Assembly (NCBI GenBank): GCA_951406725.2
Contig: OX597814.1
Coordinates: 70,680,001-70,744,000, forward strand
Reading direction: 5' to 3'
DNA: 64,000 nt
DNA from: Octopus vulgaris
Taxonomy: Eukaryota
Shown here piece by piece: positions 34,090 to 48,244 of the stretch (position 1 is its first letter; every line of letters starts with the position of its first letter). The notes beneath the pieces were generated by a model. It searched no databases. It saw nothing but the letters and a program-made list of their open reading frames with translations, and was not told the DNA's origin. The position numbers were made by a program, and so were the translations under genes.

Positions 34090-35678
34090 TGATATGACAT
34101 ACGACTTCTCGTCGTCACTGTTATAATATTCAACGTTCTTGATGTTCTCCTATTACTCTCCAACTGTGTATCTTCAACAAGCCCTCCACGATATAGATAT
34201 TTAATAATTCCTACGACCTGTACACTACGACTGCGCATATGACACTCTCCTCAGACTGTTCTGCTCATTTATACTAACTAGTATAATTCACTTAGCCAAT
34301 CTCGGTGATGTACAGATTCTCCATACAACACCTCCCCCTTTGAGATTGACTTTCCCTTTATTTATTTATTTATTTTTATTACTTCATTAGGGAAAAATTG
34401 ACATATTTTCGTTTAGATTCAATCTCTAACATCTGCGTCCGCTTTCTCTTTCTAGATGACTTGCGCAATGGTTCAACCCCTTCCTGCGGCACCGGAATAT
34501 CAAATATGTCATAAGATATTTCCATAGGCTCTTCCTGTGTTTATCGTCCTTCTGTGTATCTCTTTTTTATTTGATTTACATGTCTCTTATGCTCACATGT
34601 TTGCCTTTTCACCATATATTTTACTCTACCAAGACGTTTGGTTATTTGTCCTTGTTCCCAACTTTGCTTTCCATATTTGTACATTTTAAAAAATACTACT
34701 TTCCCTATATTGAAATAGTTTGTATTATTAACAGTATTCTTCTGTATTTGTTGTTTCCTTCCAGGTAACAATTTATCAAATACAGATCGTACCTTTCTGG
34801 CGAACATTAATTCAGCAGATGACATACCCGGCTCTGTGTTGGGGTTTGGCGTTATTCTATAGACGCGTAAAAATTTTGTCCGTGTATTATCCACTAATGA
34901 TTCGTTTCTGGTTTTCCTCAACGCACTTTCAAACGTATCTACGAACCTCTCCGCAAATCCATTTGACCTCGGGTGATATGGCGGGGTAGTGACATGTTCC
35001 ATTTGATGCGTCGTACAAAAATCTTTGAACTCTTTTGCTGTAAATTACGTGCCGTTATCCGACGCTATAGTCTGTGACACATCAAAACGTGCAAATATTT
35101 CATCTAAAAATTCAATAGTCATTTTCGTAGTTGGTTTTCTGCATTTACAAATTTCAGGCCGCTTTGTGTAGCTATCTCCCACTACCAGATGATATACACC
35201 GATTAGTGGTCCTGCAAAATCTATGTGTAGTCTAGACCACGGTATATCTGTCTTTGGCTACGTTTGAATCTTTACTGGCGGGGCCTTAGCTGCCAGGGCG
35301 CATCCCCTGCATGCTTTCACCAGTTTCTGGATATCTTTATCCATTTTAGGCCAATAAGTATAACTCCTCATGAGGGACTTCATCCTTGCAATTCCAGGAT
35401 GGCCTGTATGAAATTCTTTTAGCATTCTATTTTGTAGTACAACAGGTATCTCATCCTCGTTGCCACTGATATGACGTACGACTTCTCATCGTTACTGTTA
35501 TATCTGAACTCTTATAATATGAAACGTTCCTGATGTTCTCTTATTACTTCAACGAGCACTCCACGATATCTCTATTCAATAATTCCTACGACCTGTACAC
35601 TATGACTGCGCATATTACACGCTACTCAGGCTTCTCAGTCCACTTAGCCAATCACGGGGTGTATAGATTCCCCATACA
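34090..35678 (-). mobile_element. Internally deleted Gypsy LTR element: LTR (35467-35678), PBS, integrase only, PPT, LTR (34090-34330)
   Basis: Two homologous LTRs. PBS tggcaacgaggatg at 35452-35465. FHTGHPGIARMK...YWPKM...C..C and PPYHPRSNGFAERFVDTF integrase motifs. PPT aaagggggagg. Confidence 0.88.
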
Positions 35679-35707
35679 TACATACATACATACATACATA
35701 CATACAT

Positions 35708-38700
35708 TATGGCTGCCCCCTCGTTATCGAGTATGGCCATTGCACGAAGCTTAACTGTTACTGGTGCTGTGATCGAATGTGACTTTTTAGCCCAGCTAAA
35801 GATCTACAATGTCTTGTACAGAATTGGCAACTAATACCTTTACCGGTAATAGCCGGCTGTAGTTGTAACTGGGCTTCATGTACCTTTGCATGTCGTTTAA
35901 GACCTCCTGCCGAATTACACTCTCTTCCACATGCCCGACAGATATGATTAGTATGGTGTGTTACACTACCAGTGGCCAGGTTGTCACTCATCTGTCTCGC
36001 TTTATGACTACGAAGATGACTCTTGAGTCCAGTTTTACTGAGGCAGGGTCTTGCACAGACATTGCATGTCAGCATCAAAGGAAGACCCTTCCCATCTGGA
36101 AGTGTAACAGCGACGCCCTTCCTGACATCCCTCCTTACTTTCTCATGTGCAACTCGAGATTTCTCAAAAGTGGCTGTCCCCTCGTGCACAATCCTTCTCC
36201 ACCTGCTACGATAAATAGCTATGCCTTCCCGTGTGTCAGGAAAGATGCAAGCATCTCTTAAGGATGCTTTCAGCAAGTCCTTATACCTCTTTTTTGGTTT
36301 ATGTGGATGTCGTTCTCCTTTAGCTAACTCTCCATAAAAGAGTTGTTTTGGTATCCTTGAATCCTTCATCCTGACCAGATGACCACTCCATCTGAGCCTT
36401 TGCTTTAACATAAGAGCGTCTATACTTTCACACAGAGAGCCTTCCAATATTTCAAGATCACTGATGCGGTCCTTCCACTTAATGCCATAGATCCGTCTGA
36501 GGCACATCTGATGGAAATGCTCCAGTTGTTTAAGGTGGTATCGACATGTGACCCACGTCTTGCAGGCATAAAGAAGAGAAGGGAGCACACATGCCTTGTA
36601 CACCTTTATCTTTGTCTTTCTGCATATGTCTCGCCGACTCCAGAGGCGCTTTTCTAGCCTTCCGAAAGCAACATTTGCTTTCCTAATTCTATATGGAATT
36701 TCATCATCCAAATTGCCATATCTATTAATAGTGCTTCCCAGGTAGACTAACTGATCAACTACATCAAGTCGTTTACCATACACATAGATATTTGGTACAC
36801 TATACTGCTTACCAGTATAGACAACAGTTTTCTTGAGACTGTCAATCCTAAGGCAGTGCAAGCATCAGAGAATGCATTCAAAATGTGTTGCATATCAATC
36901 TCTGTGTGTGCTACTAGCTCACAATCATCAGCATACAAAAGGTCTCTTATGATAGAGGTAAATACCTTTTTTTTTTTGCAGCAAGGCGCCTGATATTAAA
37001 TATGCTGCCAGAGGTTCGAGACCACCATTACTGCATCTCTCCAGTCCTCAGGTACAGATTCACTAGTCCATATCTTACCAAACAAAGAGTGAAGTTTCTG
37101 CAGAAGTTTCTCACAACCATGCTGTAACAACTCCGCATGTATGCCATCCATACCCGGAGACTTCCCATTATTCAACCTTGAGACAGCCATTGCAACTTCT
37201 TCCAACTTTGGTGGTTCTGCGAGTGCTGCCTTCACAGGTAATCCAGGGATGAGATTGAGAACATCCTCACTAACTACAGACTGCTGATTCAAAAGTTCCT
37301 CAAAGTGTTCTTGCCACCTTCGCAGAATTCCTTGTGAATCACGAAGAAGTTCTTTACCATCCCTGCTTCAAAGTGGTGTCATCAGGGAAGACGTCGGTCC
37401 ATAAACTTCTCGCAAGAGATCATACAACAGCTTTGTGTTATTGGAATCTGATGCTGCCTGTATCTCATCAGCCTTCTTACTCCACCACGTATCCCTCATC
37501 TGAGAGAGCCTTTGCCTCACACGAGATTTTACGTCCTTGAGTTCCCTATGCAACACTTCCATTTCCAGTGGCTTTGCTGACAAATAGCGTGACAAAGTGC
37601 GGCTTTTATCAGCCAATAAATCATCTATATGTTCATCATTTTCTTTAAACCAATCTTTCTTGCCTATATCATAAACTGACTTTTTAAGGGTCAGCCAATC
37701 CTCCCCAATATCTGCAGCATTCATTTCCTCTCGTAAAGTTCTCTTCACACTATTACACCTAAGACTATCAACATTCAGTCTTTTAGGCAGGGTGATCCCT
37801 GCAGCTCGGATTTTATGTTTTGTGACTAATTTCACTTTTGCACGTACTAGGCCGTGGTCAGTCCAACACTCAGCTCCACGAAGATTACGAACACACTGCA
37901 CATCCTGTCTGTCACGCACCCTAACTAGGATGTAATCCAGAATATGCCATTCTTTAGATGCAGGGTGCATCCATGTAGTCTTAAGCTTATTCTTTTGTTG
38001 AAACATGGTATTGGTAACACACAGACTCAGTTCCTCACACATCTGCAGCAAAAGCATGCCATTACTGTTACACTTCCCCACCCCATGCTTTCCAATTACA
38101 GTCCATGTGTTAAAATCCCTACCCACTCTAGCATTAAAGTCACCCAGTACGATGACTTTGTCTGCCTGAGGGATATTTCTTATAATGCCCTTCAAAGTAT
38201 AGTAGAAAGAAAGTTTTTCGTCATCAGTATAGCACATAGTTGGAGCATACACACTCATCAAGGTCATATAATTTCCTTTAACCAAAGGAATTCTCGTGGA
38301 CATAAGACTGGGAATTCTTCCAACTTGTCCACAAGAGTAGTCTTAACAGCAAATGCCACTCCAGCTTCTCCGCTAAGCTCTTCATCTCTCCCTTTCCAAA
38401 AGAATGTATATTTTTCACAAGATTCTGTAAGATGACCATCTCCAGGTAATCTCGTCTCAGATAAAGCAACGATGCCAAGATCATAGCGTTGAAGCTCCTT
38501 CGCAACAAGCGCAGTCCTTCTTTCAGGACATTCAGAGGACTTGCGGTCAAGCAGTGCCTGTACATTCCAACAGCCAATATTCAATATTTTCTTTGGTTCT
38601 ATCACAGTAGCATGATGACGGCCGGGTTCAGACTGTGATACTCTGGAGCCCCTGCCGGGCCAGACTCTTTCAGCTGATGTGGTTCCAGAGTCCTTACTGC

Positions 38701-39265
38701 CATTTATTTTTATACTGTTTTGGTACATCATTGATTTTTTGCTTTTTAAGGCTACAGCCAGCCATTCAGTTGAGACTCACAGTGCCATCAACAATCATGA
38801 ATTAGTTAATCAATTTAATCAATCAATCAATGTTGTTATCGTGCAATGTCTGTGCAAAAAGTTTTTTTTTAAGTGAGGAAAGGCTGTGCACTGAGTCAAT
38901 CCCACTCACTAAGCAACAGCAGCCATAACCCGAAAAGAAGAACAAGTCAACATCATCGGTAACCACTGAGCCGCAGGTTTCATGTCGGAGTTATCCCAGT
39001 TACCTTCTCCTAGAAGGATGCCCTAACAAAGGCCAGGAGTTCTTCACTCCCAATGGTTTAACCGCGCGATCGTGTATTCAGTCCAATTATGTCCCCGCGC
39101 ATGATACAGACTTAAGACATTTATTGGATGGCCGTTGACTCTCAAGAGTTCCTCCGCCCTTTGACGGGTTTTGTTTTTCATCCCGCAGGGTGTCCAATAA
39201 ACACCTTCCTCACCAAGCAAGCTTGGTGGTGTTGCCGGTTTAGTCGCCGACGACCCGACCATGCA
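35708..39265 (-). mobile_element. RTE-clade (BovB-like) LINE, near full length with part of the RT deleted, three C-terminal C2H2 fingers
   Basis: IGCWNVQAL...ERRTALVAKELQRY...ALSETR, SVYAPT, GDFNARVG, CWTDH, LRWSGHLVRM..SRIPKQLFYGEL. Flanked on both sides by (CATA)n. Confidence 0.92.
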
Positions 39266-39288
39266 ACATACATACATACATACATACT

Positions 39289-40007
39289 TACAAAATGTTC
39301 CCGGACTAGTTATGTTTATAGTTATATCAAAAAGTTCCCGGACTAGTTATGTTTAATTTTAAAAAAAACTTATTTACCAAAGATTTAACATTATCTCCTT
39401 CGAAATAGTCACCTTGCGCAGCAACACACCTTTTCCAGCGTTCCTGTCACTTTTGGAATCCGGCCTAGTGTTTGCCGTGAGTTGAGGACCTTCTACGATT
39501 CGCTCATGATCTTGACAACGCTCTTAAAACAGCAATCTTTGAGCTGCATTTTCATCTTGGGGAAGAAATAGAAGTACGAAGATGTTAAATCTGGTAAACA
39601 GGACGGGTGCGAAAGCAAGACTATGTTGTTTTTTGGCGAGAAACTCACGAGTTAGACGAGCACAGTGACAGGATGTGTTGTCGTCGTGAAGAATTCAGTT
39701 CTTCGCGTTCCACAGATCCGGTCGCTTCTGCCGAATGTCCTCCCTCAAACGTTTCAAAATGTCGTTAATTGTCCTCCGACGGAAATGTGGAAAAAATTAA
39801 TCAGCTTGTGTATCTTACACAAGCTGATTAATATTTCCACATTTCCGAGGGTGACGCTTGTGACAGGTCCTCCAGATCGCCCATCGTCTTCCAAGGACGT
39901 TATTCCGCTTTTGAAGCGCCCGTGCCACTCGAAACATTGGGTATAACCCATTGCCTCGTCGCCTTAAGCTACAAAACTAGTCCAGGAACTGCTTGATACC
40001 ACCTCGT
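39289..40007 (-). mobile_element. Mariner-type non-autonomous remnant
   Basis: QCFEWHGRFKSGITSLEDDGRSGGP (HTH region); TIR-like gttcccggactag (duplicated at the left end) versus ctagtccaggaac. Confidence 0.75.
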
Positions 40008-40861: not shown

Positions 40862-41041
40862 AACGCTAGTCCGCGGTTTTATATTCCATGTAAGATAGAA
40901 AATAATTTATTTCACTGTTTCTCACTTAAATGAGTGCACACATATACTTACAAAAATGATTTAGCAGTATCCGTAACAGTACACAAGGTATTATATTTTG
41001 TACAAAATGTGTCGAAGGTACTTGAGCGTGTATATATATAT

Positions 41042-41430
41042 ATCATCATCATCATCATCATCATCATCATTTAACGTCCGCTTTCCATGCTAGCATGGGT
41101 TGGACGGTTCAACTGGGGTCTGGGGAGCCCGAAAGCTGCACCAGCCCAGTCAGATCTGGCAGTGTTTCTACAGCTGGATGCCCTTCCTAACGCCAACCAC
41201 TCCGAGAGTGTAGTGGGTGATTTTATGTGCCACCGACACAGGTGCCAGACGAGGCTGGCAAACGGCCACGCTCGGATGGTGTTTTTTATGTGCCACCGAC
41301 ACAGGTGCCAGACGAGGCGCTGGCAGACGGCCACGCTCGGATGGTGTTTTTATGTGCCACCGACACAGGTGCCAGATGAGGCTGGCAAAACGGCCACGAT
41401 CGGATGGTGCTTGTTACGTGCCCACAGCAC
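41042..41430 (-). mobile_element. SINE-like element with (TGA)n tail and an internal ~63-bp tandem repeat (3+ copies)
   Basis: Minus-strand end ccgtccaacccatgctagcatggaaagcggacgttaaa(tga)n; ttttatgtgccaccgacacaggtgccaga at 41221, 41284 and 41348. Confidence 0.7.
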
Positions 41431-44689: not shown

Positions 44690-47600
44690 GACAAATGTTG
44701 CCCGTTTTTGCTGTCACACATCCTACAAAGGGGAAATTCGCTGCTCTTATTTGGAACTTGTTGTAATTAGTCCTCAGAGCTTGTTCCTGGGCGCTGCATA
44801 TCAATACCTCAGTGTATCCTTTCAGATCACTTTTTATTCGTCATTTCCAAGTGTTGGTCTTGTCTTTTCCTACGATTCCTCTGAGGCATTACCCATGCAG
44901 TGATTTCATTTTCCAGTTGTTTATTCTTTCTTCATCTTGTTTCATAAATGTTTGTGGATGCATCACATTTTCAGTGGGTATTATATTATTAATTCTAACA
45001 GCGCAAGTAAGGATTCACTCTGTTGTTTGATGTACCATCCCAAACTGCAATTTATGAGACCACTTCCACCCCTGTTCCTAGGCACATACAGCTTGTCAGT
45101 ATCGCTTTTGGAGTGTACTTCCTTGTTAATTGTCGTCACTTTTCTGTCCATTTTTTCTTTTCTTGTCCATTTCCTCAAGCTTGTTCTTTGTCCACGAAAC
45201 AACACTTACGTCATATCGCATTAAAGAAACAGCCCATGTGTTCATTTCTCTAGTCTTGTTTTTTCCATTGAGCCTACTTCCCATAATCAATTTGGTTCTT
45301 CTGAGATATTCTCGCCCGAAGCTTTCCTTCATTTCACTTTCCTTGATTTTGCCCATATTCCAAAATACCCAGATACTTATATTCATTAGTATTTTGGAAT
45401 ATGGGCAAAATACATTATCTTTGTTTTCACGCTGTAATATCCTTGATTTTCACGCTGTTGGATAACACCATTAGACGAAACTATTTTGCGTTTTTGTATC
45501 ATAAGCATACCACACTTTTTAATCCCAAATTCCATTTGAATATCTGCACTGTGGAAATTAGGCCATTTATTTCACGTTCAGTCTTCTCAAAGATCTTTAA
45601 GTTATCCCTATATAACAAATGATTTGATTTTCTTCCACGTTTCAAGGCGTACCCGCATGTCGCTTTCCATAGTATCTGTATGAGGGATATCATATAAATC
45701 ACAAACAGCAATGGCGATAGGCTATCTCCTTGGAATATGCTTCGCTTGATGTTAACCCTCGCCAAAAAATTTCCCCATGAAGTTAACTCTGTATTCCAGT
45801 TTTTCATTGATCTCCTAATACCAGCTCAAGACTTTCTAAAATCCAGGAATGATGGACCATGTCATACGCTTTCTTATAATCGATCCATGCCATGTCCAGG
45901 TTAGTAAGTCTTTCATTGCAGTCGCTCAGTACCTTTCTGTTAATCAGAAGTTGGTCTTTTGTCCCTCGGCTTTTCTTCTGCATCATTTCTGTTCCACTGT
46001 CCATTTATCATTCATTTCCAGGAAGTTACACACATAATTAGATATTCCTGTCATTAGCTTCCTCATCAGAGGCAGGCAGGTGATAGGCCGGTAATTATCC
46101 ACTGTATTGTCTTTACTGGAATCCTCTTGGCAAAGAATTGTTTTACTTGTGGTCAACCACTTTGGTAATAGCACCCCTTTATTGATCATTTTATCCATTA
46201 GCGTGGTTATTCTTCTGTGTAGTACTGCGAAATTTTTCAGCCAATATCCTTGTACCCCATCCGGACCTGAGCATTTTCAGTTGGGGATCTTTGTTGTCTG
46301 TTCAGTTACCATTTCATTCGTTATTCTAATATTGCTCTGTTTCACTTCATATTTTTCCGACCTTAATTCCTTCAACCATTTAGAATCTTTGTTAATCTTT
46401 CCTCCATTATCCCAGATGCTACTCCAAAACCTTCTACTTTCTACAGCATCCGGTCTCTCACTGCTGTTAACCATTCCATTCAGCTGTTGATAAACCCTTT
46501 ACTGGTCTTGGAACAATTTGTTGATTTAATATTGTTCAGTTCTTTGGTCGCTTTAGCCTGCAATCTTTGTTTCAGCTCTTTAAGAACTACATATATCACT
46601 TTTTTCTTTATCCTATATCTACGTTCTAGTCCCTGATATTTCTCCTCCCTCTTGATTTCACATTTCTTCTTTTTTTCCAAGGTTCTTTTCCTTCATTCCC
46701 ACATTTACGGTTTGGTTTAAAGCCTACTCTATTTCCTATATAGATGATGCAGGCTTTAATCAATTTATTCATTCCGGTTATATTATTATTTTATCTGTCT
46801 TGATTTCTTTCAGTATTTTATTCACCTTAAGGGTCCACCCTCTGAGCACATTTCTATCTACTTTCCTGAATCCATTTATTTCCATATCTAGGTTTTCTTC
46901 AATGATACTAGTAATATCTTTGATTATTCCTTTGTCTTCATTATATAGTCATTCTCTACACCCAGGGCTTGAGAAATTATACTTCTCCCGGTTACTCTCA
47001 TTAAGTGTAGCATCGTCAACTTTCTCTGTATCTACTTCTGCATTGCTCCCCCTGTTTTCGATCATCACCATCTTCCTAATTTCATCGAGCTCTAATGAAG
47101 TTAGCCATCCTTTCTTCTTTATTGCTCTTACCTAGTCATAGAGTTCTGTTCCGTAATATCTGGGCCCTACTTCTCCATCCATAAGTCATGCATACTCTTT
47201 CTGTCTCCTTTTATTATCAATGGGTCTACCCAAAAAGTAACATTCCTTGACAGGTGTATTCATCGTCTTAGTCCATTTAGTTCTAACAGCCGTATAATGA
47301 CGACCGGGCCTGCACTGCTTACTCACAGGCGGAAGTCCGTCACCTGTAGTTCCATCCTCATTTACGTCGTTGTTTGTGTTAATTCTATTATTCATTATTC
47401 TCATGCTGATGAAAGTGTTGATAAAGTATCACAACCACTAGTATTTTTATCGAGACACCATAAGGGTTTGTCTCAAAAGACTTAAAGAAGTCCTTCTACC
47501 TTTAAAAGTTTAAGTGAGCTATCCTGCGATGTGCACTAATCCAATATTCAGAGCTCCGAGACTGGTGAAAGTGTTATTTGGATGGCTGTAAACTCATCCG

Positions 47601-47725
47601 AGTTCATCCGCCCTTAAACAGGTCTTGTATTTCATCCTGCAGGGTGACCAAATAGCAAAAAACGCCCTCCTCACATAGCAAGCTCTGTGGGGTGGCCGGT
47701 TCAGCCACCGACGGCCTGACAGCGG
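44690..47725 (-). mobile_element. R4/Dong-clade LINE, decayed, with 5' leader
   Basis: [18 protein letters not shown]...[40 protein letters not shown] (YMDD site), DKLYVPRNRGGSGL. Confidence 0.88.
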
Positions 47726-48244
47726 AAAAAAAGTGTGTGTGGGTGAGTTAAGTTGATTATTATTATGTTAGATGGATATTAGCCTTTTCCTTATAGGTTT
47801 GGCTAGATTGCTGATAACAAGCAGATGGGCTGCAGGAGTTGAGCTTCAGGCAAACTAGTCTCACATTTTGTTTGATTGGCTAATCACACACAGTGTTTGA
47901 TAAGTCTGGTGGTGGTTAGGGGGGAGCGGGAGAGGAAGATACACAGGCTTAAAATGGATCTAACGAAAATCTGGTTTACTGTTTAACGTGGTCTGTAACT
48001 GATTTTGGCTGTGGGTTTTTACTATCAACAAGTAATCTGCACAAGTATTAAAGGAAACGATAGGGAGTAAGCGAGAGAGAAAGGGTAAGAGAGTACAGAG
48101 GAAGAGAGACAAAGGACGAGAGAGTGAGGGTCAGAGAGGGAGTGAGAGAGAGAGAGAGGGGGGGAGATATATTATATTTTTATCAGTATGGGAATATTAT
48201 AAAAAAAGAAAAAATATTTATTTAGGAAACAATTATTATTATTA

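Follow-up and report, generated by a model that had tools for sequence, protein, structure and literature searches.

For LINEs that lack a clear promoter, the origin of a defined, translatable 5′ end is a settled matter only for the families that carry HDV-like or twister ribozymes. Ruminski 2011 is said to have described HDV-like ribozymes of R2, R4, Dong, RTE and L1Tc. HDV-like ribozymes are placed at the 5′ junction of the B. mori Dong and the Ascaris R4 (PMC3774820), Perere-3 carries a twister (PMC8501958), and the trypanosome L1Tc has Pr77/L1TcRz, a short 5′ hallmark common to autonomous and non-autonomous elements, 77 nt long, HDV-like and known from a single clade (PMC3383444). RTE-like UTR sequence is also recorded in R4-1_ADi at 135-179 (Kojima 2018, PMC5786205), so that RTE-to-R4 sharing is a known kind of event.

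The window, that is the whole 64-kb stretch of DNA analysed, holds an RTE (element 1) and an R4/Dong-like element (element 2) on its minus strand, and a compact covarying RNA module occupies the same 5′ slot in both. Their main features are as follows:

35673..35707, minus strand: (ATGT)n 3′ tail of the RTE; an identical repeat flanks the 5′ end, at 39287-39267
35761..38719, minus strand: RTE ORF with APE, RT with an internal gap and C2H2 fingers, interrupted by stop codons and frameshifts (protein alignment, Pfam)
38975..39065, minus strand: segment with the RTE/Ceph UTR domain motif (12-nt motif from the PMC5786205 supplement, one exact match, 39003-39014)
39121..39266, minus strand: whole shared structured module, RTE copy, starting directly after a (GTAT)n run
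44704..47395, minus strand: decayed R4/Dong-like ORF, ending at the CCHC before the restriction-like endonuclease (protein alignment)
47461..47515, minus strand: what is probably a decayed remnant of the RTE/Ceph domain's first part (motif with 3 mismatches at 47483-47500; loose ends at 47461)
47573..47720, minus strand: shared structured module, R4/Dong-like copy (alignment, blastn, read contigs)

The homology of the two 5′ ends, first proposed from the letters alone, is real. When both 5′ regions were compared with the 64-kb window by blastn, RTE positions 39259-39124 matched R4/Dong-like positions 47720-47578, both on the minus strand, with 74.8% identity over 143 columns (E 6e-23), and this pair was the single non-repeat match for both regions within the window. 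The local alignment score of the module was 105, against 30 for the best of 1000 shuffles. The common stretch is about 140 letters long and the strong similarity stops at about 39121/47573. The sequence-only reading had extended the alignment over 39064-39258 and 47526-47716; it holds as far as about 39121/47573, and from there out to 39064/47526 the similarity is weak, with 221/2000 and 61/2000 shuffles equally good.

The RTE ORF (38719-35761) aligns along protein P0121 (APE+RT+C2H2) at 55-69% identity, and Pfam recognizes APE and zinc fingers. A single ORF with APE and RT and a short tandem-repeat tail agree with the RTE clade, a name that leans also on the RTE-BovB label of a mussel homologue. 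Since the same four-base repeat is found at both ends of the RTE, the module lies within its 5′ border. The second ORF (47395-44704) aligns with residues 1-944 of P0004 (RT+CCHC+PD..D, without APE); its closest full-length relatives have RT, CCHC and PD..D and no APE, and the window copy ends before the endonuclease. The claim that the module is common to APE and restriction-like-endonuclease LINEs is supported by these two proteins. The name R4/Dong probably fits the second element, being drawn from this architecture, from two relatives that follow (TAA)n (L121 and L146) and from an N-terminal motif of the ORF, which we take to be that of R4/Dong.

Contigs from four sequencing runs, mapped on 47001-47840 at 80% likeness, gave summed depths over 47617-47644 of 19,960, 14,071, 69,194 and 1,764, where the unique flank had 63-90, 38-68, 33-53 and 3-8, a contrast of several hundredfold that is one of contig depth and not of copy number. 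RTE-type letters dominate the module depth (19,421 of 21,973 at 47624 in run X1). A second, diverged R4 copy is represented by one contig each in X2 and X3, which joins the module (20 differences in 121 letters) to the R4 ORF start (24 differences), with 388 letters between them. Among the top 24 of the 473 loose ends, those at 47600 run on as the RTE-type module 3′ end and diverge afterwards, and those at 47461, in three of the four runs, resemble the RTE internal motif 39019-39007; variant letters were taken from 40 of 211 variant places. At least half of the RTE UTR words were present in 7 of the 24 listed runs, while presumed RNA runs contained 0.22-0.32 of them and were not used as evidence. 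Given many RTE-type copies and another R4 copy with the module, it is no chance neighbour, and the chance adjacency of a Dong fragment, which had been put forward as the refuting case, is contradicted.

Homologues of the module were found in two other animals. L210 is an RTE-derived locus on an animal-type contig (E 6e-5), reached via loci of R4- and RTE-like type in MAGs contaminated by host DNA. LINE_M.nervosa_35, from a freshwater mussel and labelled RTE-BovB, is the only such consensus in file 25 of the PMC10294476 supplement, a curated bivalve LINE library of which the first 400 letters per consensus were compared. The two have upstream and downstream motifs in common, which makes it likely that L210 derives from an RTE by shortening. 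Both also carry some 50-65 nt of extra sequence upstream of the module that is absent from both window copies, so the 5′ edge of the module is not a general 5′ end. The 3′ end of L210 did not match that of the window RTE (1037/2000 shuffles as good), and a 6-nt 'target-site duplication' at L210 was rejected, as the mussel consensus shows it to be element sequence.

Wider searches returned little beyond these copies. A covariance model (R1) found no fourth copy in 28 sources or the searched MAG sets; with BLAST, on host-contaminated MAGs and their kin, it returned L210 only, besides two weak matches of 22-23 bits and two short BLAST matches. DNA-pattern scans of viral contigs (0, 26 and 0 matches), prokaryote genomes (120 and 1) and metagenomes (36) gave matches that profile searches and reading judged to be chance throughout, and the one metagenome scan, with a pattern that L210 and the mussel consensus would not match, says little on spread.

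The predicted fold consists of the following parts, with coordinates for the RTE copy:

39234..39259, minus strand: domain A, the most conserved sequence, for which a 5-bp hairpin or an H-type pseudoknot (4+5 bp) is predicted (alignment, mussel by eye)
39204..39230, minus strand: hairpin B, of 7 bp with 2 more beyond a bulge, then the purine run GAGGARGG (covariation)
39188..39206, minus strand: helix E, 5-6 bp, with a 7-nt loop complementary to 39128-39122 (predicted pseudoknot; pair counts)
39164..39187, minus strand: hairpin c, 5 bp with an A-rich loop of 12-13 nt (15/15 cells paired, 2 two-sided changes)
39129..39156, minus strand: variable arm d, a 4-bp hairpin in the RTE copy that differs in L210 and the mussel
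39121..39128, minus strand: 3′ strand pairing with the helix E loop, and end of the module (loose ends diverge beyond)

A structure of 23 pairs for three tool-aligned sequences had 94% of its 69 cells paired and six pairs with two-sided changes; it was derived from the same sequences on which it is scored, one of 500 shuffles scored as high, and slid controls reached 38-45%. An out-of-sample test was provided by the 16 pairs of the sequence-only reading, which were fixed before L210 was known and whose four helices are all present in both window copies. L210 differs at 11 of the sites, and seven of the 16 pairs change, of which six stay paired and four do so with two-sided changes (null P 0.0009). 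Inspection by eye of the mussel consensus shows that hairpin B is kept in 7/7 pairs (5 two-sided relative to the RTE copy), hairpin c in 5/5 (2) and helix E in 6/6 (2), for a total of nine two-sided changes. The covariation first proposed is supported overall. Of the helices first quoted, ccct/aggg has no two-sided change in three sequences and is possible but weaker, competing with the better-supported helix E.

Helix E itself has 5/6 pairs in the RTE, 4/6 in R4 and 5/6 in L210, and the majority letter at 47664 in the read contigs restores one of the R4 pairs. Its loop pairs with the module 3′ end at 7/7 positions in the RTE and L210, and by eye in R4 and the mussel. Domain A fits the hairpin in 14/15 cells and the H-type pseudoknot in 24/27. 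The revised fold would comprise hairpin B, hairpin c and helix E, with a pseudoknot between the helix E loop and the 3′ end. A long helix between the 5′ end and the 3′ RRCC was dropped; it fails in R4, and its L210 stretch also pairs locally. Single-sequence folding is weak (z -1.58, -0.62 and -0.51), and forcing a nested model raises the energy above that of the free fold by 0.4, 4.9 and 14.7 kcal/mol, the last value being that of L210. We nonetheless regard it as very probable that a conserved, covarying RNA structure exists in the four families, on both ORF types, and base-pair covariation points to a function at the RNA level.

Of the known ribozyme classes, none was recognized in the module. 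The comparison with Rfam, proposed along with the original claim, gave nothing above the gathering threshold in the window and only chance-level matches (E 2.7-9). The hammerhead core is CUGANGA with GAAA, and no CUGANGA occurs in the three copies. For the upstream part of L210 and the mussel, which we presumed to resemble hatchet, RF02678 had no match at E 10 in G001 (150/1581 candidates scored) and none in L210 1150-1700. A resemblance to RNase P, 7SK, SRP, or the pistol and hairpin ribozymes was also considered and then set aside, with no Rfam match. A strict HDV-like descriptor (P1, P2, P3, P1.1 and P4, N-Y-C in L3, GG after P1′) found 0 matches in the RTE, R4 and L210 copies, and a relaxed one gave inconsistent matches no better than shuffles and 0 in R4; we built the descriptor from known features of the class, among them those in PMC3774820, and the same descriptor finds a predicted fold starting at +1 in L146. 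Like the module, the HDV-like LINE ribozymes described there occupy a 5′-terminal slot in the same LINE clades, have predicted pseudoknots, are portable and are protein-independent, but they differ in their P3/L3/P1.1 core and in crossing P1/P2 with CNRA before P2. CURA is conserved in domain A and has no upstream P2 partner in the copies. No fold likeness of the module to Pr77/L1TcRz was found (PMC3383444).

Twister, whose mark is a UCCCAAGC-type L4 loop with T1/T2 pseudoknots, was sought as well, and neither that loop motif in the three copies nor an Rfam twister match was found. The twister T-variants of Perere-3 and the twisters of bivalve RTE-BovB represent an alternative RTE head, with a GAGGAGGG-type purine run in common with the module (PMC8501958 and PMC10294476), whereas the module has no L4 loop, no GC after P2 and different helices. 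One purine motif matches seven bivalve consensus sequences in file 25 of PMC10294476, six of which are RTE-BovB heads with the twister loop. These six come from four bivalve species and have the loop at their 5′ start, and twister-headed RTEs therefore extend beyond the Schistosoma Perere-3. Topic and motif searches of the literature did not find the module structure; Repbase, Dfam and Ruminski 2011 may contain its sequences or fold. The motif was absent from the searched supplements of PMC5786205, PMC4758252 and PMC13282606, and the motif search of PMC10294476 covered 12 supplement files and file 25, with the SINE library outside it. The module is filed under none of the known ribozyme classes, although it may work like them.

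In regards to the exchange between clades that the sequence-only reading had suggested, the sharing is confirmed and its direction is likely from RTE to R4, while the idea of a terminal structure does not always apply, the mussel and L210 extending upstream. From sequence comparison, the R4 family likely took about 260 nt of RTE 5′ UTR, consisting of the module and the beginning of the RTE/Ceph domain, the junction lying near 47461; a template switch would have put the RTE UTR head in place of the Dong element's own. RTE-type homologues of the module occur in two other animals, and the module is present in 0 of 21 R4-like loci of other organisms, a count that is weak since most of these loci are 5′-incomplete and about three show their head. 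Kojima's RTE/Ceph domain (PMC5786205) lies directly downstream of the module in the RTE copy and is present, probably in decayed form, in the R4 copy. It is a mid-UTR domain, its TCTAGGAGAAGG-type motif occurs at 39003-39014 and not in the module, the module's model does not match it, and PMC5786205 does not describe a structure for the terminal module. In the R4 copy the motif was found with 3 mismatches at 47483-47500, the sole such match in the window with 0.31 expected, for a motif length that was chosen with the R4 copy in view.

Dong-like heads of other kinds were also seen. L146, which is Dong-like after (TAA)n, has a predicted HDV-like fold from its first base (2450-2530), with a score of 12 where shuffles reach 15. 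The head of L121, also Dong-like after (TAA)n, is one that we take to be SINE-type, 5S-like and CORE-like; together with the start of the RTE/Ceph domain it makes up 130-350, and L121 would be, judging by these pieces, a second case of head capture by a Dong-like clade. The module would add a family-level case of between-clade 5′-UTR capture.

The question of what the module does is of interest since it is a compact covarying RNA in the 5′ slot of LINEs, conserved in distantly related animals and probably exchanged between the APE and RLE clades. Because tested ribozymes fill the same slot in Dong, R4 and RTE, we put self-cleavage first: the module would cleave itself from read-through transcripts and so free the element RNA's 5′ end. 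That it would work on two unrelated proteins is a second argument for self-cleavage and speaks, as we infer, against a binding site for the element's own protein. The whole statement, a captured RTE UTR leader with a self-cleavage mechanism, is our leading but tentative reading, narrowly ahead of the rivals and short of an even chance. The further proposal that the module, by itself or combined with the extra upstream part of the mussel and L210, would be a new self-cleaving ribozyme class of animal RTEs, the third beside HDV-like and twister, and would have replaced the R4/Dong ribozyme, is doubtful. No known catalytic core was found, and the upstream extension in the mussel and L210 is the strongest point against self-cleavage; a cut at the 5′ edge of the module could not be general, and if the active fold includes the extension, the window copies may be missing a needed part. 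If cleavage is true, a ribozyme class from animal genomes would be added, and if not, the module would still be an uncatalogued LINE leader.

A rival reading is a non-catalytic leader, which would recruit ribosomes or shield an uncapped 5′ end (IRES-like or as an exonuclease block). The covariation demands a job at the RNA level, and such a leader could act without any protein specific to the element. Several upstream AUGs lie in the RTE UTR, which measures about 540 nt, LINE ribozyme heads are reported to support translation too (PMC6765202 and PMC8501958), and the captured part comes without the upstream piece of the mussel and L210. The module is, however, at the outer end of the UTR, about 400 nt from the RTE start codon and about 180 nt from that of R4, and we consider this explanation somewhat unlikely.

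An internal RNA polymerase II promoter as the main role, with the fold as a second, overlapping function as in Pr77/L1TcRz, is unlikely. It would leave the two-sided base changes unexplained, and the mussel consensus does not retain the GC-box-like run that the window copies have. CpG observed/expected is 0.92 in the RTE module against 0.45 in the RTE ORF, but the R4 copy shows no enrichment (0.60 vs 0.58). The copies do have a common 5′ border near the module start, where contig depth falls at 47701-47728, and the Dong-like L121 took what we take to be a SINE head with its own promoter. Kojima also suggests that the RTE UTR domain binds regulators (PMC5786205), and dual use is known (PMC3383444).

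Improbable, in our view, is a remodelled or partial known ribozyme head (the 3′ part of a twister or the 3′ half of an HDV-like fold) with its catalysis lost, which would serve template handling in the RTE and be a passenger in R4. Twister-headed RTEs, by eye, share the purine run and have a similar helix and A-run behind it, but there is no twister L4 loop and there are no P1, P2 or P3 partners. Domain A reads like GG-P4-CURA in three copies, and yet the GG is missing from the mussel consensus. The window R4 copy has several broken pairs; against this, pairs lost there are restored by the majority letters of other copies, and the R4 family spread with the module. As for chance adjacency of a Dong fragment or a conserved short upstream ORF, both are scarcely credible, as the module recurs on RTEs of other animals and on the second R4 copy, and the short ORF that an AUG in loop c opens in both window copies shows mostly amino-acid changes between them, is only 13 codons long before its stop in the R4 copy, and lacks its AUG in L210.

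Some minor observations were made on the same sequences. The start of L146 matches hairpin B of R4 in 15 of 16 letters (1/3000 shuffles), one of them being a minority letter among the copies. The piece of L210 that is common with the mussel (L210:1558-1620) can form a hairpin whose loop is complementary to the letters immediately preceding domain A, a pairing with one extra base on each side in L210. Four more mussel RTE-BovB consensus sequences (PMC10294476, file 25) contain internally a short motif that resembles the end of domain A and differs from it in ways compatible with the second stem of that domain. On the contig of L210, L247:2360-4704 comprises two tandem single-exon GTPase-like ORFs, presumably AIG1/GIMAP-like. 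The window RTE is flanked at 39290-39980 and 34541-35660, according to the translations, by a decayed piece that we take to be mariner-like and an integrase piece that we take to be Gypsy-like. Finally, the window has at 41040-41420 a short repeat, presumably a SINE, of three tandem units with a motif like that of RTEs and a (TGA)n tail.
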